Shown one piece after another: positions 14,859-32,293 of a stretch of DNA of 64,000 nt. Under the pieces are notes generated by a model. The model did not search any database and had not been told where the DNA came from. It was given only the letters and a program-made list of their open reading frames with translations. The number at the start of each line of letters is the position of its first letter. Positions within the stretch are counted from its first letter, which is position 1. Position numbers and translations under genes: made by a program. The stretch is from a phage: sequence record PZ171032.1; one strand, written 5' to 3'.

Positions 14859-15122
14859 ATGGCAACAGAGTTAAAATTTGCATCAAACCGTAAAACTAAG
14901 AAGTATCTGTCCTCAGTAGCTCCAGGCACTGTGGTGATGTTTGTTGATGAACTTGGGGATGTGAATACAGCACTTGTTGTAAAATCACATCCTGCAAACA
15001 TATATGTTGGGGTATTTGACCTGTTCAGAAAGGTGTTTGTAGAACTGCCTCACAGTTTGGTTGTTACAGAAATGGATGCCTGCATAGAAATTCTTGGCGA
15101 AGTTATGGTGGAGGAACAATAA
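14859..15122 (+). CDS. small hypothetical protein, member 1 of a 4-gene tandem paralog array
   Basis: 87 aa; shares a G-T/E-VV...ELD.KI.ILGE pattern with the next three ORFs; GAGGAGG Shine-Dalgarno. Confidence 0.6.
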   Translation: MATELKFASNRKTKKYLSSVAPGTVVMFVDELGDVNTALVVKSHPANIYVGVFDLFRKVFVELPHSLVVTEMDACIEILGEVMVEEQ

Positions 15123-15385
15123 TGGCTACCAGCATTGTATTCAATTCTAAGGTGAAGAACAAAAAGCGTGCAGACAGTTTTCCGTGTGGGACCGTGGTAA
15201 GTTGCGACGGAGACGGCATTCAAAACATAGTTATGATTGTCAAAACAGGAGAACATTGTGTGTGGGGGTTCGATTTAGAAAATAATGAGTTGTACGATCT
15301 GCCGCCAAACATGAAAGTTACAGAGCTTGACACCAAAATTACCATCCTTGGAGAGACAAGCTATTCAAAAGAAGGAGGAGAATAA
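15122..15385 (+). CDS. small hypothetical protein, paralog 2
   Basis: 87 aa; start overlaps the preceding stop (TAATGG). Confidence 0.6.
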   Translation: MATSIVFNSKVKNKKRADSFPCGTVVSCDGDGIQNIVMIVKTGEHCVWGFDLENNELYDLPPNMKVTELDTKITILGETSYSKEGGE

Positions 15386-15648
15386 TGACCACAAAAATCA
15401 CTATCGCAGAACCGAAAGCTAACACTCAGCCTATCGAAAAGTTTAAGTGCGGTGAGGTGGTAACATTCACACCAGATAATGAAGATGCTAAGATTTTCGC
15501 AATGGTCACAGCTGAGTGGATGTGTGACAACACCACACAGGTTCTGCGTTTTGACACCTATCTTACCGATGAAATCAGGAACGACAAGATTGTGACTGGT
15601 GTGGATACTGAGATTGTTTTCTACAAGAGCTTTTTAGAGGGTTTCTGA
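15385..15648 (+). CDS. small hypothetical protein, paralog 3
   Basis: 87 aa; start overlaps the preceding stop (ATAATGA). Confidence 0.6.
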   Translation: MTTKITIAEPKANTQPIEKFKCGEVVTFTPDNEDAKIFAMVTAEWMCDNTTQVLRFDTYLTDEIRNDKIVTGVDTEIVFYKSFLEGF

Positions 15649-19143: not shown

Positions 19144-19344
19144 ATGGCTGATTTTTGTAAAGATTGCTCTGAAGAGTTGTTTGGCTTTGACTGCAAAGAT
19201 TTGGAAGGTCTGATCACTGAGGATCAGTGGAAGGAAGGCTATGCAGCACCTGTTATTTGTGAAGGTTGTGGCTATACCTATGTTGACCATAAAGGTAAGC
19301 GCGTCAAGCCGTCTGAAGATGGGGCATGTTGGGAGTATTACTAA
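19144..19344 (+). CDS. small zinc-ribbon-like protein
   Basis: 66 aa with two CxxC pairs (CKDC, CEGC); 'WKEGYAAPVICEGC' motif shared with the 106..588 product. Confidence 0.5.
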   Translation: MADFCKDCSEELFGFDCKDLEGLITEDQWKEGYAAPVICEGCGYTYVDHKGKRVKPSEDGACWEYY

Positions 19345-19357
19345 CTATAAAAAGAAA

Positions 19358-19373
19358 GGGGCCGTTTGGCCCC
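19358..19373. terminator. bidirectional rho-independent terminator at the convergence point
   Basis: ggggcc-gttt-ggcccc hairpin flanked by AAAGAAA upstream and TTTTTATTT downstream, so a U-run follows it on both strands. Confidence 0.65.
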
Positions 19374-19391
19374 TTTTTATTTACCCCCTTG

Positions 19392-22300
19392 TTAACGAGA
19401 AAAGGTTGCGTAGGCTTCTAGACGATACTGCTGGTCACCAGGGAACATAACACCTATAGAGGCTGTCCCTAGAATCCTGCCTTCCTTTCCAGACTCCATT
19501 CTGAACCCTACCCATCCTGAACTCCTTGCAGCCTCGATGTTGTCGCTATACCCGAAAGTGGCAAGATCGTCAACACCAGCCCCAAACAGCAACTGAAGCT
19601 GACTTCTCGGAAGCCCTATAATTTCAGGAATATACGCACCAAAGTACACCATCTGCCCTACCTTAGGACCGCTGCCGTACTCCATCGGTTTGCTTGTAGA
19701 GAAAGTCTTCATACCAGAAGTACCTGCCGGATTAGGGTATGCCCCGTTTGTTGCTGTACCTATCCACATTCTCCACTGTGGTGCCATCTGTTTGACAGTA
19801 AAAGATGTTGAAGACGTTTTGCGCCCTGCATCATCTGTAACTACAAACTTTATGGTGACATTCCCAGTAGCTTTAAATGTTACCAGTCCTGTGGTGGCAT
19901 CCACTGTTGCAATGTTGGTATTACTACTTTCCCAAGTCTTTCTAATCCCGGATACGTTGGAAGGGGTAATAGAAGGTTCCTGCATCTGCAGTTTACCGCC
20001 CACAATCCCTATGCCGTTGCCAGGATTATACAGTGCACCAACCTCGTCTATAATGTTCCCTGCTTTGAGACTATACTTCCTTGAGAAATTGTAGGTTCCG
20101 TTATAAGTGTGTGTCCCTGAGAAGGTGACATCTGCCTTCCCGTAAGAGATGCAAACCAACGCATACTTCCTGTCAGGCAACGTTTCTCCAGTCTCTGGGT
20201 GAGTTTTACCTACCTGGAACACACTCGGGTCAGTAGAGTCGTGACTATCACTAACGGAGCTTGGACCGCCCATCAACTGTGACAAACAATTCCTTACCCA
20301 TGTCCAGTTATTATCGCTGGAGAAGTCCACAGTCAAATCAAACACAACCCACTCATTTGGCTTCCACACAGGTGTTGTAATGGACTTGCCTACACCACCT
20401 CCTTGGAGTGTTGCCGACTGTTCAGTGATCAGGGCCGCATAGGCCAGAGTTCCTAAACTCAGAGTCTGGCTTGCTGTCCTCACTACCTTAGAATCAGCAT
20501 CTGTGAAGTTGTTGATGATTTGGAATGTGCCATAAGTGTTTTTACAGGTAATTCTGGCGTTCAGTGTGTCAATCTTCCTCACATCTGCCATAGCAGTGTT
20601 AGACACAGAGAAGTCAGAAGCTTTAGCTGAGTTTGCCGCAACAGCAGGATCAACGTTAAGAGTTGCGTTGAACTGACAAGCAGGAGTAACCAGTAGCTTG
20701 TTATCACCTATTTGCTTCCATGAAACACTTTGAACAGGGAGATTCCATTTAATACCTGAGAAAACCTTAGCAACCCTTGGCCCCAAAGCTCCAGTCCTGT
20801 TGTCTTTACAGCACATAGACATGGTGATCGTTGACGGAGTGGCCTGACCAAATAATTGCTGTGCTTTTGCAGAGGACATAGTGTAGAAATTGTCCTTAAC
20901 AAACTCATCAGCAGCTAAAGATCCATCAGCTCTCCACCACTGAACCTGATACCCTGTTTTGTCCCAACCACCGACCTGCTTCAAGTCCTCCCAGGAGATT
21001 TCCAGATCCCCGGTGGTAGGATTGATTGCAGCAGTTCCTGGTGTTCCAGATGACCATATTGGAATATCGAACCACGCTGGTTTAACCGACTGCACTGCGC
21101 TGGGACCTATTGCGGCAGCAAGTTGCTGGCCCATCAATACGCGAGCATCTTTCACCAGACCCCACTCAATCATAGACCCAGAGTAACCTTCTTTCTTGTA
21201 GGCTGAGGATCCGTTCAAATGGATGAGTCGGCTTGTGCCAAAGTTATGTGCTCCACCACCGTTGTCGTCTGCAAAATTGGTTATGATTCTGTCCCTGATA
21301 TTTTTCCATGCCCTGCCTCCAATCTCGTAGTCATGGTCATAACATCTTTGCAGTGTTGTCCAGCAAATGATCGCCATCCTTCTACCATTGCTGAAGCCAA
21401 AGGCCTGATCGTTAAGCTCTCTCCACAAGTAGCAGTTGGTGGTCCACATGGCCCTATGAATGTTAAACCAGTTTATAGATTTGGCTGAGTTGTTCCACTG
21501 AGTCCCAGGTAATTCAGGCCATACTGCATTAACCAGCATGTCTTCTGTTCCTGCATCAACCAGGAACCCTCTCACCTTCTTACCCATGCCTACCCTATCT
21601 TTTGCAATCCAACTGCCAAACAATCTCAGTTTTGGACCGTAGACAACATCTTCCGGATGCTCAAAAGAAATATATTTTAGGTATATTGTAGGGTCACCAT
21701 AGGTGCCATCACAAACAGCTTTGTGCATGTTCTCACCAAGGTCTAGACGAAGTCCTGTTACAACTCTAGACGTGTCGGTGAATTTGTCTGTTAAATCAAA
21801 CTCATACCACCACCAACCTGCACCCAACAATACTTTCTTACAACGCTGTGCATCTGTATCAGATATTCTCTTATCGCCTGCAAAAGGTGAGTCAGCAAAC
21901 TGATAGTGCAGAGCAACCTCAAAAGGATGTGTGGATGTCCCGTTTTCTGCAAGAACTTGTTTACCTATCAGGTCGCACTTAATGATCATCACAACACGTT
22001 TGTATCCGTTTGTTACCGGAATTTGCATGGACATGGATGTCCCATCCATGTTTGATCTCAGTGCAGTCATGATGATATAAGGGTCAACGGCATTGCCCAA
22101 AGTCTCAGGACCGGGGATTATCTTATACTTCTTGACCTGCCCCATGATGTAGTCACTTGCGTAAGTTGCCTCATTCAAGCAAGATCCTCCACCAGGTAAC
22201 TCACCAGGTCCCCAGAAAAATGCGCCGTAACAGTTGTAGAACCACTTGTTAGGATCGTATTTATTCTTGAAGGTCTGAACCTCGTTGGCCTGTTTTGTCA

Positions 22301-25028
22301 AGAAAACCTGCGTGTCTGTGAAGATTGCAGGGTTTACTCTCGCCTGTCTTGGAGGGTAACCTGTAGTTTGGTTAAACCACAAATTACAAGAGTAATCCCT
22401 CATATAGTCATAATCAGAGTATTTGTTTACATCTTCGTTCCAACACATGTTTAGGTTGGTACCGCCCATGCATACAATATATTCTGCGACATACTTATCA
22501 CTTCTGGTAGGAATACCTATGAACCATCTGTTAACAGGCTCATCCCAAGCTGTGCGCTCATCTTTAACGCAGATAGCAATCCAGTCATGTGTTCCTGTTT
22601 TCTTGCACACATCTCGCTTCATACCATAGTAGAACTCTTTAGTATTCGGCTCAGGTGCATTTATCAGGTAACTCCATGCCTGATTTGCATAAGTTCCATT
22701 GGTGCGTGGATCATGATCAAAGGCATACATGATGATCCTTTCCCCACCAAGATGTTCGCCAAGAGTAACTTTGACATTCACATCGCCGTAACCATTGCGA
22801 ACAACATCCATATTGTCAATAGAGATGCCTCTGGGAGTGTAGGCAATCTTCAGCGAGTTATCCTCACTAGTGCCACCAAGTGTAATCCCTATGTTGTTTG
22901 TTGTCCCGTCGGCATATCTTACTGTGGCTTCCCAGCGTATTCCGAAATATCCTGCATCATGGCTAACAATTTTCAGTGTACGAGCACCAGAGTTAGGTTT
23001 TCCAGGATCAGGCCAAGGATTTGGATGTTCATGGACAGTCAACGATGTCCCGTTTTGCTCGTTGACCTGCAACATTTTACCGCCTCTGCCGTTAGGGTTG
23101 AACTCCCACAAGGCTTGTGTTTTCACAATATTGTCATACGTGGTACGTCTCTGATCGTAGATCTCCTGAGTCACATCGTAGGTTACAGACCCGGCATCCA
23201 TTCTATGGAGTCGTACTATATACGATGTATCGCCTTCTACAGCAGGTTGAGCTGCGTTAAGCCCGAAGTATACAGTATCGTTGACATGGAACTGTTTGTT
23301 TCTACCGACAGTATGCCACTTGCCGTTGGACGGGTACGCTGGGACGATAGTGTTCCAGTTCAAAGTCCTTGTTGTGTGGGTTCTGCCTGTGCCATGTTTG
23401 TCATGATAGGTTATTTTTACAGAGTACAGTCCACGTCTGTTAACATTTCTGTTATATTGGGTAACAACAACTTCGTTGGCCCCGCCGTGGTTCCAGTTGG
23501 TGGAGAATTGGTAATTTGCATCTGTAACAACCGTGCCTGCAGCATTTACCAGTTCAATCTTGTCAATAATGAACGTAGCCCCCTCTGGCTGAGGCTTCAA
23601 TTTCATCTTGACCGTGTCACCAATGTAAATATTGCTAACGCTGCTAACACCGTTAACTTCGAAAATATAATCAACACCCCAACTGTCTACTGGGACATTT
23701 TTATACCAATTCTCAGGAACCTCTGTGAACCCCTGGCTATTAAGTCTGCCGCCAAACAGGTTGTTAGATCCTGCAAAACTTCCCCTTGGGATGCCTGACC
23801 ACCAAAGTTTACCATTAACAACAGTAAAGGTTCCTAAGAAACCTTCTCTGTGGATGCCTTGGAAATAAACACTCTCTGTCCAGCTAACTGGCAGGCGTTG
23901 CTCAACATATTTAGCTGTAGCAAGAGCTTGATAGTGGATAAAATTAGCCCTAGGGCTATTGTTTGCAGATTGTGCACCAATATCATTACACAAGTTGCGA
24001 GAGAATCCACGATACTGTTTAGTGCCATTATTGAAGAAAATGCCACTTGTGCCATATCCACGAGCCATTATCACCTCATGGGTGTAGGTGATATTTAAGG
24101 AACGCCATGTGTCATCTCCCCAGACGTCTTGCCCGTAGAATACGTTAACAAGCTGCTGGTCATTGGGTTTGTGCATCCTCTGTGTGGCAATTATTGCCCC
24201 GTTAGGGCCACACATAAACCCTTTCCACTCCTCATCTGCAGGAATGCCCCTCAAATCGTTACGAGTAATCTGCACAGGGGGCCAAACAAGGTCGTTTCTA
24301 CTGTTATTTCTCAGAAAGTCGTATCCAGCAATCCAGAAACCCCTAGGACCACCGAAAATAACAGAGTTGTCATGCACCTCACAGTTGATGCTTGGGTTTT
24401 TCCAAGGGCCTGTTTCAGGATTTTCCGATGTCTCACCAATCTTTACAGGGGTTGCATGCTGATTTTTATCTACATGCAAAGATCCGTAGGTGTTGTTACC
24501 AGATCCATACAGGTTAAGTATGCCAGTACCTTCTGCCTCTGCAATAACCCAGACAGTGTTGTTAATACCGCCCATCACCTCAATAAGGCGTTCTGGGTGG
24601 GTGTCAAGGTGCAATCCTTTAACAATCTGCTCTGGGAGTGGTGTCCACTCGTTTACGCAAACATCATTACCGCCTGCCGCAGTGGATCCGATAAGACCTG
24701 CAGTGCAGCCGATGTAGAAAAACTGGTTATCAAAAGTCCGGATCACAAACGCGCGGTCTGCTCTCCACACATGATCAACATTCCAGGCTGTTTCGCTCGG
24801 ATAGTTTATAGGGCTACGATCCCCAGTGCGGCACTCTCCGAACTTGTTATAGCCAGTAATATTAAGCTGACCATCATCAAAAAGTATAGCTAAGCTATTT
24901 ACATAGGATACTGTGTTGCTTGTACCATCACTGTTGTCTATTGGGTATGACAGAACAGCAAGTTCCTTAATTCCACCCCTCTTATCGAGGAAATGACGAC
25001 CAAGTTTTAGCAAAGGGATTGGAAGCAT
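19392..25028 (-). CDS. giant virion-associated protein (1878 aa), probable tail fiber/tailspike with RCC1-like N-terminal repeats
   Basis: Largest ORF in the window, at the distal end of the fiber cluster; N-terminus has RCC1-like repeat signatures ('ILFDDGQLNITGYNKFGE', 'VWVIAEAEGTGILNLYGSGNNTYG'); Trp/Tyr/Asn-rich. Confidence 0.6.
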   Translation of the reverse strand: MLPIPLLKLGRHFLDKRGGIKELAVLSYPIDNSDGTSNTVSYVNSLAILFDDGQLNITGYNKFGECRTGDRSPINYPSETAWNVDHVWRADRAFVIRTFDNQFFYIGCTAGLIGSTAAGGNDVCVNEWTPLPEQIVKGLHLDTHPERLIEVMGGINNTVWVIAEAEGTGILNLYGSGNNTYGSLHVDKNQHATPVKIGETSENPETGPWKNPSINCEVHDNSVIFGGPRGFWIAGYDFLRNNSRNDLVWPPVQITRNDLRGIPADEEWKGFMCGPNGAIIATQRMHKPNDQQLVNVFYGQDVWGDDTWRSLNITYTHEVIMARGYGTSGIFFNNGTKQYRGFSRNLCNDIGAQSANNSPRANFIHYQALATAKYVEQRLPVSWTESVYFQGIHREGFLGTFTVVNGKLWWSGIPRGSFAGSNNLFGGRLNSQGFTEVPENWYKNVPVDSWGVDYIFEVNGVSSVSNIYIGDTVKMKLKPQPEGATFIIDKIELVNAAGTVVTDANYQFSTNWNHGGANEVVVTQYNRNVNRRGLYSVKITYHDKHGTGRTHTTRTLNWNTIVPAYPSNGKWHTVGRNKQFHVNDTVYFGLNAAQPAVEGDTSYIVRLHRMDAGSVTYDVTQEIYDQRRTTYDNIVKTQALWEFNPNGRGGKMLQVNEQNGTSLTVHEHPNPWPDPGKPNSGARTLKIVSHDAGYFGIRWEATVRYADGTTNNIGITLGGTSEDNSLKIAYTPRGISIDNMDVVRNGYGDVNVKVTLGEHLGGERIIMYAFDHDPRTNGTYANQAWSYLINAPEPNTKEFYYGMKRDVCKKTGTHDWIAICVKDERTAWDEPVNRWFIGIPTRSDKYVAEYIVCMGGTNLNMCWNEDVNKYSDYDYMRDYSCNLWFNQTTGYPPRQARVNPAIFTDTQVFLTKQANEVQTFKNKYDPNKWFYNCYGAFFWGPGELPGGGSCLNEATYASDYIMGQVKKYKIIPGPETLGNAVDPYIIMTALRSNMDGTSMSMQIPVTNGYKRVVMIIKCDLIGKQVLAENGTSTHPFEVALHYQFADSPFAGDKRISDTDAQRCKKVLLGAGWWWYEFDLTDKFTDTSRVVTGLRLDLGENMHKAVCDGTYGDPTIYLKYISFEHPEDVVYGPKLRLFGSWIAKDRVGMGKKVRGFLVDAGTEDMLVNAVWPELPGTQWNNSAKSINWFNIHRAMWTTNCYLWRELNDQAFGFSNGRRMAIICWTTLQRCYDHDYEIGGRAWKNIRDRIITNFADDNGGGAHNFGTSRLIHLNGSSAYKKEGYSGSMIEWGLVKDARVLMGQQLAAAIGPSAVQSVKPAWFDIPIWSSGTPGTAAINPTTGDLEISWEDLKQVGGWDKTGYQVQWWRADGSLAADEFVKDNFYTMSSAKAQQLFGQATPSTITMSMCCKDNRTGALGPRVAKVFSGIKWNLPVQSVSWKQIGDNKLLVTPACQFNATLNVDPAVAANSAKASDFSVSNTAMADVRKIDTLNARITCKNTYGTFQIINNFTDADSKVVRTASQTLSLGTLAYAALITEQSATLQGGGVGKSITTPVWKPNEWVVFDLTVDFSSDNNWTWVRNCLSQLMGGPSSVSDSHDSTDPSVFQVGKTHPETGETLPDRKYALVCISYGKADVTFSGTHTYNGTYNFSRKYSLKAGNIIDEVGALYNPGNGIGIVGGKLQMQEPSITPSNVSGIRKTWESSNTNIATVDATTGLVTFKATGNVTIKFVVTDDAGRKTSSTSFTVKQMAPQWRMWIGTATNGAYPNPAGTSGMKTFSTSKPMEYGSGPKVGQMVYFGAYIPEIIGLPRSQLQLLFGAGVDDLATFGYSDNIEAARSSGWVGFRMESGKEGRILGTASIGVMFPGDQQYRLEAYATFSR

Positions 25029-25047
25029 TGTGTTCTCCAGATAAGAA

Positions 25048-25069
25048 AACCGCCCCGTCAGGAGCGGTT
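25048..25069 (-). terminator. weak terminator-like hairpin
   Basis: aaccgc / gcggtt stem with a 10-nt loop; U-rich tract follows on the minus strand. Confidence 0.25.
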
Positions 25070-25076
25070 AGATATA

Positions 25077-26822
25077 TTAACGTTGTGCAATTACTACGTC
25101 TACAATATCACCAACACCACAATATGTTAATTGCAGCAGGGTAACACTGTTAGCCTTGTTGTTAATAACAGGTGTTGCCGACAGGATAGCATACTTATCG
25201 TGCAAAGTCACGTTGTGACCTACAGCATCCTGAATGACATAGATAACTGCAGTGAATGGATAAGGTTTATCTTCCGCTGATGTCCCAGGCCACTGCCCTA
25301 TTGTAAAATCCCCTTTAGCGTGGACAACATACATACTGGCCTGCCCGTTAGGTGTCCATGTCCCACTAGATGCGTCAACCTCCTCTAAGTCAAAGTCTAC
25401 TTTTCCTGCATGGAAAGAAGGGGCGGTGATAGTTTTACCTGCCTCGATCTCTTGTGAGGTGGTTATCTTGCCACTAGAGTTGATACCATTACAGACAAAG
25501 TTAACATTAGAGAAATCTGGCAACCACCCTGTCACTGTGCCAGAAATCTCAAGGTTATGCAGGCGTGTTGTTCCTGTGCCGTTGTCATTTAAGCTAACAT
25601 CACCATTTACCTGCAAGTTTCTGGTAACGTTGCAGTTTTCAGAGTTTGCAGTTGTTGCAGTTAAAGTGGTTGTTGTCAGCTCGGTAATTATGCCTTTGTT
25701 GGCTGTAAGACCTTCCCCTTCAAAAGTTGCACGCTCATTGACTCTCAGGGTATTCAGAGCTATGTTTTGGATAGAGGCTGTACCTCGAATAACTACAGAC
25801 CCGCCAACCTCTAAATCGCCATTTACCAATGCATCGCCCGTGCTTTCAATGTAGCTAGGGTAGATCATGGTGCCATCGACAGAGTAGGTTATCCCTGTAA
25901 CGGTGCCTGTCACCTCAAGGTTCTTAACCCTAGCGGTCCCATCGACCTGCAATGTCGGTTCGGTTGCTGCCTTCATGGCATTGCCACGAATGTACACGTA
26001 GTCAAAAAAGTTATTACCCAGACCATCAAAATGCACATCGTTATTATTAGCCACTGGTTTCCCAGAAGTTATAGTGTCAGCTATAATCCTGTGGGTGGAC
26101 ACTTCATGAGGTTGCAGCTCTGTGCTTCTCCAGTCTGCATGCTTAGGATCGCTCCACGCAAAAGTAAGTGTAGAAGTATTTGCCGTGAGGATCAGGTTCC
26201 TGAAGCGTGCATTGGAATCTGCTCCATTAACAGGCCCATGTAAGGTAAGTGTGCCCCCAACTATGGTGTTGGCAAGTTCTGTAAGACCTTTTACCACCAA
26301 AGACCCTACAGTAACTTTCATCCCCTCCATGGCTTTAAATATACTATCTACATAGTCAACAACAAACTCTGTGTTTGCTATAGACTCAGACTTATCGTCC
26401 ATTGGAGGAGTAGGTACTCGCGGGTCACCTTCGAACCTTGGGCTGTTAAGTTTTGCGTAGTATTTTGCCATTACTGCAGAGTCGGTGTATAATCTCCAGT
26501 TTGGAGATTGTGAAGGATCTGCTGGCATTCTAACCGGGTTAGATTTTGATGCTGCGGGAGCGTACCACCACTGAGGGCCTGTGTCCCCTTTAAACTCATA
26601 CAACTGGTTAAAAACTGTTGTGGATGCACCATACGCCCAAGGGATTGGTGGCGTTTTAAAATAAAGGGTGTCAAGCATGGCTTTTCGTACCGTAGGGATA
26701 GTGGTCCCATCCTCTACGACAACTTCATCCACAGCGTTACCGTTGACAATCAAGTGCAAACGTTCAGAATCAACAATTACTTGATCTACCGCCTGCTCGA
26801 AGCTTGTCATGTCTTGCGCCAT
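25077..26822 (-). CDS. tail fiber/tailspike-like protein
   Basis: 581 aa, Thr/Asn/Gly/Val-rich repetitive beta-strand-like sequence ('NLEVTGTVTGITYS', 'LEISGTVTGW'); located in the fiber cluster. Confidence 0.5.
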   Translation of the reverse strand: MAQDMTSFEQAVDQVIVDSERLHLIVNGNAVDEVVVEDGTTIPTVRKAMLDTLYFKTPPIPWAYGASTTVFNQLYEFKGDTGPQWWYAPAASKSNPVRMPADPSQSPNWRLYTDSAVMAKYYAKLNSPRFEGDPRVPTPPMDDKSESIANTEFVVDYVDSIFKAMEGMKVTVGSLVVKGLTELANTIVGGTLTLHGPVNGADSNARFRNLILTANTSTLTFAWSDPKHADWRSTELQPHEVSTHRIIADTITSGKPVANNNDVHFDGLGNNFFDYVYIRGNAMKAATEPTLQVDGTARVKNLEVTGTVTGITYSVDGTMIYPSYIESTGDALVNGDLEVGGSVVIRGTASIQNIALNTLRVNERATFEGEGLTANKGIITELTTTTLTATTANSENCNVTRNLQVNGDVSLNDNGTGTTRLHNLEISGTVTGWLPDFSNVNFVCNGINSSGKITTSQEIEAGKTITAPSFHAGKVDFDLEEVDASSGTWTPNGQASMYVVHAKGDFTIGQWPGTSAEDKPYPFTAVIYVIQDAVGHNVTLHDKYAILSATPVINNKANSVTLLQLTYCGVGDIVDVVIAQR

Positions 26823-28568: not shown

Positions 28569-29153
28569 TTAGAGGGTAGGTCGCTCCGGGAAGAAAATGT
28601 CAGGGGCTTTAGATGTATCTATTTCAAGAAGTTTTACCCTGTACATTTTCAAATCTCTGATGTTACGTTTCTGGTCATCAGTAAGATCATATTCAAGGTC
28701 AATCATGTCTTGATAGGCACCAATTCTAGCAGTAGCCCAAGCAAGTTCTGTCTCTATGACACCCTCTGCCTGTTGAACAAAGAATTCATTATCTGTGACA
28801 AATTCATCACCAACTAAACGCAAAGCGTCGTGGTGAAGCATAATGTTTTCTGGTACCTCTTCTTTTTTGGCGATAACCACACGAAGACCTGGAGCAGGCC
28901 ATAAGGCATCAGGTTCTTCTGTAGATGTCTTAAGAATTCCCTTCTCGTCAACAAGTAGGAAGATACAACCCGGATTTTCTTGTCGCAATGTTCGTGACTG
29001 CACATACCAATCGCCATCATCATTACGTAAAAAATACCCAGTGTATGCGGTGTAATCCTCAACCTCTTGAGGGGTCAGCTCCTTGGTTTCCTTGTTGGCG
29101 TGGTATTCGCCAGATCCCGGTTGGTAAAGTTTAAACTCTTTAAGTATTTTCAT
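28569..29153 (-). CDS. tail fiber assembly protein (Tfa chaperone family)
   Basis: C-terminal 'LTDDQKRNIRDLKMYRVKLLEIDTSKAPDIFFPERP' matches the Tfa signature as recalled (a conserved Y-R, a D-x-S and an A-P-D-I ... P tail); immediately downstream of a gpH-like fiber. Confidence 0.75.
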   Translation of the reverse strand: MKILKEFKLYQPGSGEYHANKETKELTPQEVEDYTAYTGYFLRNDDGDWYVQSRTLRQENPGCIFLLVDEKGILKTSTEEPDALWPAPGLRVVIAKKEEVPENIMLHHDALRLVGDEFVTDNEFFVQQAEGVIETELAWATARIGAYQDMIDLEYDLTDDQKRNIRDLKMYRVKLLEIDTSKAPDIFFPERPTL

Positions 29154-30220: not shown

Positions 30221-32293
30221 TTATGAGAAGTCTGGCGGGACAACATCTTCTACATACCCTTTCAGAGCAACCTGCCCCATATGAAGCACGGTAGAATCTC
30301 TAGCGGTAACAGTGATGCTGTCAGACATTACTTGCGGGTATGCCCACACATACTGTTTTACCTCAGGGTATCTATACTCTATAGTTGCCATGTTTCCGCA
30401 AATACATCTCCATAAAAATTCTTGGTAATTCCTAGTTGGGTCGTAGCCATATACCGGAGCAAGCTCTTTACTAGGAACGAACCCTGCAAGGTATTGTATT
30501 TCAGACGGTTGCCAACCTAACTTAACGATAGGTATGTTTACAGACTCTTTTGCCTTTTCAATACCTCCCTGCATCACCCAATCGTAGCACTCAGTGCAGA
30601 AGAAATCAAGAGCACCTGCTTCCTTTTTATATTGGTCAGCAAGGTTCAGCTTTTGCGTAAGCTCGGTTTCCATAATGGTTGGGAAAAACAGCAAAGCTGT
30701 CATCTGAGCTGATGCAGCGTGTGCTTTTATTGCCTTTGAAATAGCCGCAATACGAGCGCCAAGCTTACCACGACAAAATGCTACATACTTGTCGTAAACA
30801 CCGCCAGTTTTAGGATCGTCAATAGTCCCAATATCTAATGCATACTCGCCTGTCTCATCATAAAACGCCTGTTTTGTAGGGTAATCATAAATACAAGGTC
30901 TACGAGTATCGGTATTGTACCACCACCACGGTTCACCAACCTGCATAATCACTGGCAGGTTGTTTCTCATAGCGGCTGATGCAAAATTCTTAAATACTGC
31001 AGTAAGGAAATTCATACCCTCTTCAATGGTTGGAGACAGGAGGTAGCTACAAGGTGTATACCCTGTTTTAGCGTAGTTATCGTTCCAGTCTCTTTGGGTC
31101 CATTCCAACGGGCAGGCGTCGCTGAAAAGCTCAAAACTTACAGATTGCATAACGTCGAAGTTATGTCGTTTGGCATTGTACATAAAATCATCATGCCATT
31201 TATAAGCTGCAGCGTTTAGCGCTCCTGTTCTGTTTATAGACCATTGGGTTCCTGACCATGTGTAGTCATAATAATGACTCATACCAACATAATGGTTTAT
31301 GGTTCCGGTATAGCCCAGACGCTTGATATTGTTCAACACCCTTAAAGGAGACACGTTCCACATATCGTCATATGCGGTGCAGATCCCAACATCGTGCTCT
31401 TTAACCTGAATATTGTTAAGTTGCATCATTTTCCAGCCTGTGTCTGGCTGGAGCAGATCTAGGCGCAACTCACACTCTACATTTTCCGTTCTCGGGTCTG
31501 TGCTATTACTTACCCAGTCTTTAGGCATGAGCGGTATTAAAATCCTTCTCACCTGCCGAGGATCAACACCCATCATGTTGTTGTTCTGGTCCATCCCGAC
31601 GCAGTCCTCAAAATCAATATGAATTTCTGCAACATTCTTATCCTCTGAGATGCTGACAGCATATTGAGCTAAAGGAACATAGATGATTGTGCCATCAACA
31701 AGGTCTACAGTCATAATCATCTTTTCAGGAGTGGAGAAGTTGCTGGCGTTGGTTATTGACATTCTGAACCAAAGCTTGGTGTTTCTCATCTCATAGTGAT
31801 CATCAAACCCAATACCGAAATGGTCATACTTGTCAACTGTTTCCCAAATGCACCCAGCCATACCCCCATATGTTCTTGACACTAAACGGTTAATACAACA
31901 GTTGTTATCTGCAACAATACAGGTACTTTCAGTCTGCTGAGTAGTTGTAACCCAATACCTTGGGTGAAACATTCTCTCCTCAACAGTATCCCAAGATATC
32001 CTGTCAAGATTCTCATCTGAAACTATTGTACATTTCGCCCTTTGTGTTCCAATCATCACCCCTTGAGATTTTGATGAAAACTCCATAAAGAAGCTTCTTG
32101 GCAACCTGTTGGGTAATTTGTCAACAATTTCCACAGGGATCTCAATACTGGTTGCCCCAATTGGGATAGTTACATCGCCCTCAACATGATTATAATCCCT
32201 ACCAGGAACGGCAGTATCCTGAACTGTTCGGTAATGAAACTGTGCAGCCATTGTAGAGTAATCACGGTAAGGTTTAAAAACAGCTGTTGCCAT
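30221..32293 (-). CDS. baseplate/tail fiber-associated protein with possible glycoside-hydrolase-like C-terminal domain
   Basis: 690 aa; aromatic-rich C-terminal half ('GEPWWWYNTD', 'FFCTECYDW') reminiscent of carbohydrate-active enzymes; position between baseplate and fiber genes. Confidence 0.45.
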   Translation of the reverse strand: MATAVFKPYRDYSTMAAQFHYRTVQDTAVPGRDYNHVEGDVTIPIGATSIEIPVEIVDKLPNRLPRSFFMEFSSKSQGVMIGTQRAKCTIVSDENLDRISWDTVEERMFHPRYWVTTTQQTESTCIVADNNCCINRLVSRTYGGMAGCIWETVDKYDHFGIGFDDHYEMRNTKLWFRMSITNASNFSTPEKMIMTVDLVDGTIIYVPLAQYAVSISEDKNVAEIHIDFEDCVGMDQNNNMMGVDPRQVRRILIPLMPKDWVSNSTDPRTENVECELRLDLLQPDTGWKMMQLNNIQVKEHDVGICTAYDDMWNVSPLRVLNNIKRLGYTGTINHYVGMSHYYDYTWSGTQWSINRTGALNAAAYKWHDDFMYNAKRHNFDVMQSVSFELFSDACPLEWTQRDWNDNYAKTGYTPCSYLLSPTIEEGMNFLTAVFKNFASAAMRNNLPVIMQVGEPWWWYNTDTRRPCIYDYPTKQAFYDETGEYALDIGTIDDPKTGGVYDKYVAFCRGKLGARIAAISKAIKAHAASAQMTALLFFPTIMETELTQKLNLADQYKKEAGALDFFCTECYDWVMQGGIEKAKESVNIPIVKLGWQPSEIQYLAGFVPSKELAPVYGYDPTRNYQEFLWRCICGNMATIEYRYPEVKQYVWAYPQVMSDSITVTARDSTVLHMGQVALKGYVEDVVPPDFS

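Follow-up and report, generated by a model that had tools for sequence, protein, structure and literature searches.

gp27, the largest protein of an rV5-like phage sequence, carries an RCC1-like N-terminal domain, Ig-like domains and an exchangeable C-terminal tip

The phage sequence PZ171032.1, analysed here over a stretch of 64,000 nucleotides (nt; hereafter the window), contains on its minus strand, at positions 19392..25028, an open reading frame (ORF) of 1878 amino acids (aa) plus stop that begins with ATG. No other ORF in the window is as long, as a preliminary description of this DNA had stated, the runners-up having 1381 and 1270 aa. The gene is the ortholog of rV5 gp27 and belongs to PHROG 15684, whose profile covers the protein end to end (4497 bits, positions 1–1878 of 1878). 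The N-terminus of gp27 reads M-x-P-I-P invariantly across genera; since homologs from other genera keep this start, the ATG was taken as the right one, which a GGAG motif upstream also supports. The features of the gene and its immediate surroundings are as follows:

19144..19344, plus strand: convergent 66-aa gene, sharing the bidirectional terminator with gp27
19355..19376, both strands: bidirectional intrinsic terminator, a hairpin between gp27 and the convergent 66-aa gene
19392..25028, minus strand: gp27 ORF, ortholog of rV5 gp27, PHROG 15684
25035..25038, minus strand: GGAG ribosome-binding site of gp27, 6 nt 5' of the ATG, read from the sequence
25048..25069, minus strand: terminator-like hairpin and U-run between the gp28 stop (25077) and the gp27 ATG
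25077..26822, minus strand: gp28, 581 aa, immediately upstream of gp27, homolog of a phiTE fibre chain

The 19355–19376 hairpin has folding energies of -18.7 kcal/mol (minus strand) and -19.6 kcal/mol (plus strand), with U-runs on both strands. Together with the convergent gene orientation, this bears out the earlier claim that gp27 is the last gene before a bidirectional terminator. Its assignment to the end of the structural unit also held, as gp27 lies at the tail-fibre end of the structural module and its neighbour is a phiTE fibre homolog. The position is that seen in rV5-like relatives, after gp28 and before the convergent early genes.

Comparison with deposited genomes revealed full-length gp27 matches at 90–99.9% identity in 110 records (tblastn); 108 phage records contain most of the gene, and the full gene is found at 88–99.7% nucleotide identity in more than 100 genomes. 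The gp27 DNA is 99.7% identical to that of Escherichia phage ECP2303 and about 97% identical to those of Murica and CarlMeissner (Bas48). This near-identity, together with the 108 phage records, identifies the window as that of an rV5-like Vequintavirus. In rV5, gp27 is described as a conserved hypothetical protein of 1878 aa and 208 kDa with a Big_2 domain (rV5 Table S3, PMC3606486); the window gene is the same gene, of the same length and in the same position, with no structural difference. Annotations label the protein as 'Ig-like domain-containing protein' or 'structural protein with Ig domain', and in Bas48 as 'lateral tail fiber protein with intimin domain'. No functional study of gp27 was found in the literature searched, and BLAST detected neither paralogs of gp27 in the window nor repeats within the protein. 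Measured against five relatives, the ratio of nonsynonymous to synonymous substitution rates (dN/dS) is 0.07–0.08 overall and 0.02–0.15 in each of five regions, so that all 1878 codons are under maintaining selection. gp27 is a real gene under strong purifying selection. Among the database matches we also encountered 15–20 unannotated 'Campylobacter phage' records (GenBank MG065635-MG065690, host C. jejuni) that are 86–99% identical to the present E. coli phage across the fibre genes; these are probably mislabelled or contaminant genomes.

The most conserved part of gp27 is its N-terminal domain:

23694..25028, minus strand: RCC1-like domain, presumed seven-bladed beta-propeller, aa 1–445

Using tblastn, we found aa 1–197 to be common to the last fibre-module gene of Phapecoctavirus and Seunavirus, at 30–42% identity; at the BLAST level this is the only part of gp27 found in other genera. 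A cross-genus alignment of seven sequences (A4, window protein included) is collinear to about aa 445, and its profile matched, in the PDB, UVR8 (1e-15), HERC1 (1.5e-13), HERC2 (3e-9), RPGR (3e-8) and RCC2 (1e-6), as well as ATS1. The preliminary description had read RCC1-like repeats in the N-terminal ~250 aa and had called them unusual. The cross-genus profile confirms the domain and extends it to about 445 aa, and for the gp27 family the domain is not unusual, being the sole element shared by all positional orthologs. The sequence comparisons showed conservation among Vequintavirus, Phapecoctavirus and Seunavirus to be confined to these ~445 aa, and the RCC1-like domain is, on that basis, a family trait and the defining module of the gp27 family.

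Scanned alone, the window protein gave no RCC1 match in Pfam at E<=1. Sub-threshold WD40_RLD matches were present in 12 of the 16 family members, and four of these scanned singly scored 17–21 bits at aa ~50–205, to be read against a Pfam cut-off of 150 bits for this model (PF25390). The cut-off of PF00415, 21.7 bits, was passed by ESCO5 gp226 (24.2 bits) and GAP31_232 (32.7 bits), which also match WD40_RLD (PF25390) at E ~1e-10 over aa 40–332. A hidden Markov model (HMM) built from UVR8 blades only scored 11.6 bits on the window N-terminus versus a maximum of 5.9 in 300 shuffles, placing blades at aa 52–77 and 172–197, and seven blade motifs were read by eye near aa 57, 105, 174, 233, 297, 339 and 409. 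The domain length is compatible with seven blades, and the AlphaFold2 (AF2) model reaches a predicted local distance difference test (pLDDT) score of only 21–38 over aa 151–400. PHROG 11922, 'tail protein', matches aa 41–197. A word-indexed homolog search with the N-terminal 447 aa returned only three near-identical matches. The literature searched contained no paper linking RCC1-like domains to phage tail fibres. It has been suggested that RCC1-annotated virion proteins condense DNA in the capsid; we rejected this idea, as RCC1 is a name kept for historical reasons and such domains are general-purpose interaction propellers.

In phiTE, a 413-aa hypothetical protein, phiTE_242 (L015:29109-30350), is encoded after the fibre gene and its terminator. 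It has no Pfam or PDB match and shows a weak collinear hhalign match to the propeller start (probability 9.5%), a hint that it may be a very diverged positional equivalent of gp27.

Analysis of the gene upstream of gp27 indicated a link to the baseplate. gp28 aa 8–325 match the 'Putative tail fiber protein' chain of PDB entry 9CUY (E 1.8e-77), from the phiTE baseplate (9CUY/9MJN), and gp28 orthologs carry Pfam Phage_phiTE_241_N/C. The modelled phiTE fibres attach to the wedge and sheath initiator (PMC11972413). A gp28-type gene and a propeller gene form an adjacent pair in Vequintavirus, Phapecoctavirus and Seunavirus, and the ~45-nt spacer between the two contains a GC-rich hairpin followed by a U-run in every lineage examined (four lineages). 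The window hairpin at 25048–25069 folds at -14.9 kcal/mol (z -4.0); the corresponding energies are -15.8 kcal/mol in ESCO5, -20.2 in GAP31, -20.7 in PVP-SE1 and -18.3 in a divergent metagenomic relative. The spacer hairpins in the loci of relatives are located at:

L002:8961-8981
L003:7961-7984
L006 ~2842-2864
L004:7972-7993

The stems are unrelated in sequence; the structure is conserved and the sequence is not. Annotations of phages Alma and phiTE place a terminator at the same spot. We presume that the 25048–25069 hairpin is an attenuator that would set low gp27 expression via read-through.

Two further observations concern neighbouring genes. At 30221–32293 (minus strand) lies a 690-aa protein with the N-terminal and TIM-barrel domains of the N4 non-contractile tail sheath (PF23844, PF23845, E 4e-80) and Calx-beta; this is the component that published work proposes as an ECA/NGR-binding deacetylase fibre. 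Downstream of gp27, the early region contains three back-to-back plus-strand ORFs of exactly 87 aa each (14859–15122, 15122–15385 and 15385–15648), which look like tandem paralogs and correspond to hypothetical proteins in the Bas48 annotation.

The body of gp27 was modelled with AF2 in two overlapping parts, aa 1–850 (9 sequences, mean pLDDT 42) and aa 731–1878 (7 sequences, mean pLDDT 49). About half of the protein was modelled at pLDDT <50, and fold searches were informative for the Ig-like (immunoglobulin-like) parts only. Following the propeller, the minus strand encodes:

23349..23693, minus strand: probable Ig-like beta-sandwich, aa 446–560, strands at pLDDT 50–69
22833..23348, minus strand: aa 561–732, model confidence <35, no family match in Pfam or PHROGs
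22494..22832, minus strand: Ig-like beta-sandwich, aa 733–845, all-beta, pLDDT 75–82 in the first model and 37–61 in the second
22137..22493, minus strand: conserved helix-rich stretch, aa 846–964, invariant columns, low-confidence helices, no Pfam or PDB match
21654..22136, minus strand: beta-sandwich domain of unknown type, aa 965–1125, pLDDT 57–81 over ~1000–1120, no family match
21099..21653, minus strand: predicted helical region, aa 1126–1310, second most conserved, helices at pLDDT 20–33
20739..21098, minus strand: beta domain, aa 1311–1430, possibly fibronectin type III (FN3)-like from a pattern read by eye, strands at pLDDT 42–62
20049..20738, minus strand: region replaced in divergent lineages, aa 1431–1660, identity 0.16–0.36
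19830..19985, minus strand: Big_2 (intimin-type, PF02368) Ig-like domain, aa 1682–1733, passes Pfam
19395..19775, minus strand: C-terminal tip, aa 1752–1878, allelic cassette of two types among cultured phages, marked by a drop in identity

The usable parts of the models (aa 733–845, the best-modelled part of the first model, roughly aa 1000–1120 and aa ~1530–1760) are all beta-sandwiches, and aa ~1530–1660 were modelled as Ig-like beta-sandwiches at pLDDT 62–86 over most of their length. The structure prediction proposed for checking the protein thus yielded Ig-like sandwiches where modelling succeeded, the propeller and helix-rich modules remaining at low confidence. Foldseek searches against the PDB matched cadherin ectodomains, S-layer proteins and NUP210, which are strings of Ig-like domains, and a search of BFVD returned the protein's own orthologs and then Ig-bearing phage structural proteins, including PVP-SE1 protein 40. 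Where it could be modelled, the body of gp27 consists mainly of Ig-like beta-sandwiches.

Profile searches agreed with the earlier statement that most of the protein belongs to no recognised family. Big_2 (aa 1682–1733) is the sole domain of the window protein that passes Pfam, and an aa 731–1878 profile run against 1.84 billion representatives returned, among the best 150 matches, only its own family and Big_2 repeats, which swamped the search and may hide weaker matches. PHROG 215, 'structural protein with Ig domain' (head and packaging), covers aa 1592–1877, and NCBIfam intimin scores gp27 at 22.6 bits against a cut-off of 1400. A sub-threshold Bact_surface_Ig-like match lies at aa ~506–560 in three of the four matching orthologs and at aa 1762–1808 in the fourth. 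Domain-level HMM searches therefore recovered Big_2 and the cross-genus RCC1-like domain and left the central body without any match: three orthologous slices of the central conserved region gave none in Pfam at E<=10, a full-family PDB profile search gave nothing usable there, and Pfam, NCBIfam, PHROGs and PDB sequence searches added nothing.

Two stretches of this central body are conserved. The helix-rich aa 846–964 contain the motifs GGTNLN and FTD..FL.KQANEVQ..KN.YD..KW, and the invariant polar residues of aa 1126–1310 include E1162, D1163, N1186, N1189, H1191, R1192, R1228, Y1230, E1235, E1280, Y1282 and E1288, making the latter region a candidate catalytic or interface module. The preliminary description had suggested a very large tailspike or a virion-associated enzyme. 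Neither suggestion is supported, as Pfam, NCBIfam, PHROGs, PDB sequence and fold searches revealed no beta-helix, depolymerase, esterase, peptidase or intramolecular chaperone, and the modelled parts are Ig-like. The few enzyme chains among the fold matches align through portions that are Ig-like or otherwise non-catalytic. The searches also detected no coiled coil, triple beta-helix, collar or C-terminal chaperone, in a protein about half of which is modelled at pLDDT <50. The sole Caudo_TAP chaperone lies at 28569–29153, beside the short fibres.

Conservation falls along the protein. In a collection of 5.8 billion proteins, the gp27 family forms 15 clusters, 13 of which (P0003–P0015) are 45–58% identical and span only the first 76% of gp27; a word-indexed search with the family alignment found no new members. 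Identity of the family members to the window protein is ~0.75 over aa 1–450, 0.3–0.7 over aa 450–1450, with a conservation peak of 0.68 at aa 1151–1200, and 0.16–0.36 over aa 1450–1878, the last ~450 aa being replaced in divergent lineages. Comparison with phage nomine revealed 96–99% identity over aa 381–1755 and only 61% over the last 127 aa (1752–1878). Across records, the last 289 aa fall into a group at >=95% identity (74 records) and a group at 80–90% (34 records), and megablast drops the 381 nt of the tip in many records. The window carries the commoner of the two tip alleles. The C-terminal model resembles the BFVD model of a V18 fragment (TM 0.84), and the BASEL authors independently noted moderate allelic variation in gp27. 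As read from the alignments, the gradient is what is commonly seen where a conserved end serves attachment and an exchangeable tip confers specificity.

Several deposited genomes of plaque-forming isolates carry disrupted gp27 alleles. Phage nomine has W82* (TGG -> TAG at codon 82) and phage phita32 has Q1439* (CAA -> TAA at codon 1439); phage ime carries a 2-nt deletion at codon 1051, naswa and Alma carry 1-nt deletions, and V18 has large deletions. In the APECc02 and YP-6 records, gp27 is annotated as split. Because broken copies occur in independent plaque-forming isolates, gp27 is probably dispensable for growth on laboratory hosts.

Evidence on the virion itself comes from rV5 and related phages. 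In the rV5 multidimensional protein identification technology (MudPIT) table, gp27 appears with 3.1% coverage from 3 peptides and 9 spectra. Virions of the related phage W70 contained three proteins annotated with the RCC1 superfamily (PMC11370258); these are absent from the tblastn matches to the gp27 propeller. In phi92-like phages, three fibre sets have been imaged by cryo-electron microscopy (PMC13450770). phi92 gene 152 (NC_023693.1 91365-91484) has only a 40-aa Big_2 piece in common with the Phapecoctavirus ortholog of gp27; other Justusliebigvirus records resemble phi92 here, and gene 152 of one relative is annotated as a tail carbohydrate esterase.

Taken together, we favour, at about even chances, the reading that gp27 is an accessory fibre or adhesin of the virion, present in few copies and not essential. 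The propeller would serve as the docking module that fixes gp27 to the fibre network, its most likely partner being gp28, the homolog of the baseplate-anchored phiTE fibre. The Ig-like chain would then project the variable tip tens of nanometres outward, where the tip and the Ig-like domains may bind surface glycans weakly and reversibly. Such binding would raise adsorption on natural hosts and be unneeded on laboratory strains, and read-through of the upstream terminator would keep the copy number of gp27 below that of gp28. An extended version of this proposal, which we hold to be improbable, takes the propeller as an undescribed docking module that branches a giant, probably monomeric Ig-chain 'tentacle' off trimeric gp28 at a terminator-limited low copy number, and takes aa ~846–1310 as a new family of glycan-active enzymes or lectins.

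A number of points weigh against the accessory-adhesin reading. Virion proteomics, named earlier as a check, does list gp27 in the existing rV5 data, but the three peptides, which are non- or semi-tryptic, score modestly; the rV5 mass spectrometry (MS) list of 19 proteins also includes gp1 (660 aa) and gp228, here taken as non-structural, and a later paper accepts just six proteins of rV5 as confirmed by MS. phi92-like phages have no RCC1-like domain, which makes any placement of gp27 on the particle tentative. The AF2 models are poor, so that the propeller and its fold, the modules rich in helices and any oligomeric state are presumptive. An enzyme of unrecognised type could reside in the conserved aa 846–964 and 1126–1310, given their invariant polar residues. 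Single-base indels may reflect faulty assembly, an explanation harder to apply to the two nonsense substitutions and to the deletions, and the 1381-aa neighbour is uninterpretable as a control for disruption, its matches spilling into adjacent genes and its middle being variable.

Were gp27 a canonical lateral tail fibre or tailspike, it would be a trimeric receptor-binding protein and one of the three Vequintavirinae fibre sets, which its place in the tail-fibre module, the lateral tail fibre annotation in BASEL genomes, the variable C-terminus and the PHROG 11922 match would suit. However, no trimerising or chaperone domain was detected, in models too weak to exclude trimerisation, and no assembly chaperone is adjacent; the N-terminus is a globular propeller domain rather than a trimeric adaptor, isolates with truncated gp27 still form plaques, and phi92-like phages have their three fibre sets without an RCC1-like domain (PMC13450770). 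We consider this explanation rather doubtful, and gp27 is probably not a trimeric beta-helical spike. The conserved stretches invite the alternative that gp27 is a virion-borne enzyme, in which aa 846–964 and 1126–1310, on either side of a beta-sandwich, would make up a novel catalytic unit that degrades glycans or the envelope, with the Ig-like domains and tip as carbohydrate-binding appendages. This appears unlikely: no enzyme family was found in Pfam (even at E<=10), NCBIfam, PHROGs or PDB sequences, no catalytic fold occurs among the fold-search matches, and a structural interface may equally explain the conservation in a region whose model confidence is 20–33.

The Ig-like domains have also raised the question of a decoration fibre of the head or neck, that is, a Hoc-like Ig-bearing protein on the capsid or collar through which the particle adheres to mucus or surfaces. 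PHROG 215, filed under head and packaging, matches the last 290 aa; the fold matches include a Hoc-like protein and capsid Ig domains, a weak PDB profile match to a decoration protein was obtained, and gp27 is probably dispensable, like Hoc. However, PHROG categories are unreliable for Ig domains because the domain is promiscuous, gp27 lies about 30 kb from the head genes, and it is paired with a baseplate-anchored fibre gene in all genera, so that a head or neck location seems highly unlikely. The weak MS evidence, the position behind a terminator and the dispensability would equally suit a late-expressed non-virion protein acting in the infected cell or lysate, as a debris decoy adhesin, in superinfection control or in an RCC1-type interaction. 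We regard this as very improbable, given an orientation and operon context like those of the fibre genes, an Ig-like architecture typical of phage surface proteins, and a sequence in which no signal peptide or membrane segment is evident by eye.

The accessory-adhesin reading can be set against known systems. The closest counterparts are the positional orthologs phAPEC8/ESCO5 gp226 (890 aa), GAP31_232 (567 aa) and PVP-SE1 gp40 (604 aa), annotated as 'tail protein' (PHROG 11922). Like gp27, each is the last fibre-module gene, stands behind a terminator hairpin directly after a gp28-type fibre gene, and encodes a homologous ~440-aa RCC1-like N-terminal domain with Big_2 further on. In the orthologs, Big_2 follows directly after the propeller, whereas the window protein has ~1200 extra residues in between, without detectable homologs, and similarity at the C-terminus is at the Big_2 level only. 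With UVR8, the RCC1-like domains (RLDs) of HERC1/HERC2, RPGR, RCC2 and ATS1, gp27 shares profile-level homology and the blade signature. Those proteins are eukaryotic platforms for protein interaction or guanine nucleotide exchange factor (GEF) activity, while the gp27 copy is the N-terminal module of a phage structural-module protein, too diverged for Pfam on its own, and its closed seven-blade fold is presumed.

Big_2/Ig-like folds on structural proteins, as in gp27, are known from T4 Hoc, the C-terminal domain of lambda gpV and T5 pb6 (Fraser et al. 2006). These Ig domains are laboratory-dispensable, are thought to bind surface carbohydrates weakly and number one to four on a capsid or tail-tube protein. 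gp27, in contrast, stands alone as a protein of 208 kDa, with a propeller at its head and helix-rich modules that belong to no known family. It resembles the Hoc-like adhesins in its Ig-like domains and apparent dispensability, but its gene context points to the baseplate, not the head. The Big_2 arrays of intimin/invasin, Lig and S-layer proteins (Sap, SbsC) have the same beads-on-a-string Ig-like architecture. Unlike intimin/invasin, gp27 has no beta-barrel anchor, C-type lectin tip or secretion signal, and the similarity is confined to one domain.

The gp27 family is already known and catalogued, and Ig-bearing accessory proteins on phage particles are a known kind. Three points, modest as additions, did not turn up in the literature searched: that a conserved RCC1-like propeller forms the N-terminus encoded by the last gene of the fibre module in three genera, that a terminator stands ahead of gp27, and that natural gp27 null alleles occur. 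The rV5-like phages rank among the coliphages of broad host range that are isolated most frequently, and they are candidates for use in therapy and in food safety. Gene-to-fibre assignment in these phages is still unsettled (PMC8594841; PMC13450770), and the match of gp28 to 9CUY ties to a known structure one rV5 fibre, the assignment of which was described as unclear by the BASEL authors. On the accessory-adhesin reading, the largest gene of the locus would be dropped from the candidate essential tailspikes and recast as an accessory adhesin, and nomine, phita32, ime and V18 offer natural knockout alleles ready for phenotyping. In the domain map, the conserved module is the propeller and the exchangeable tip comprises the last 127 aa; should the propeller indeed dock gp27 to the fibre network, it could usefully be exploited to engineer fibre display.

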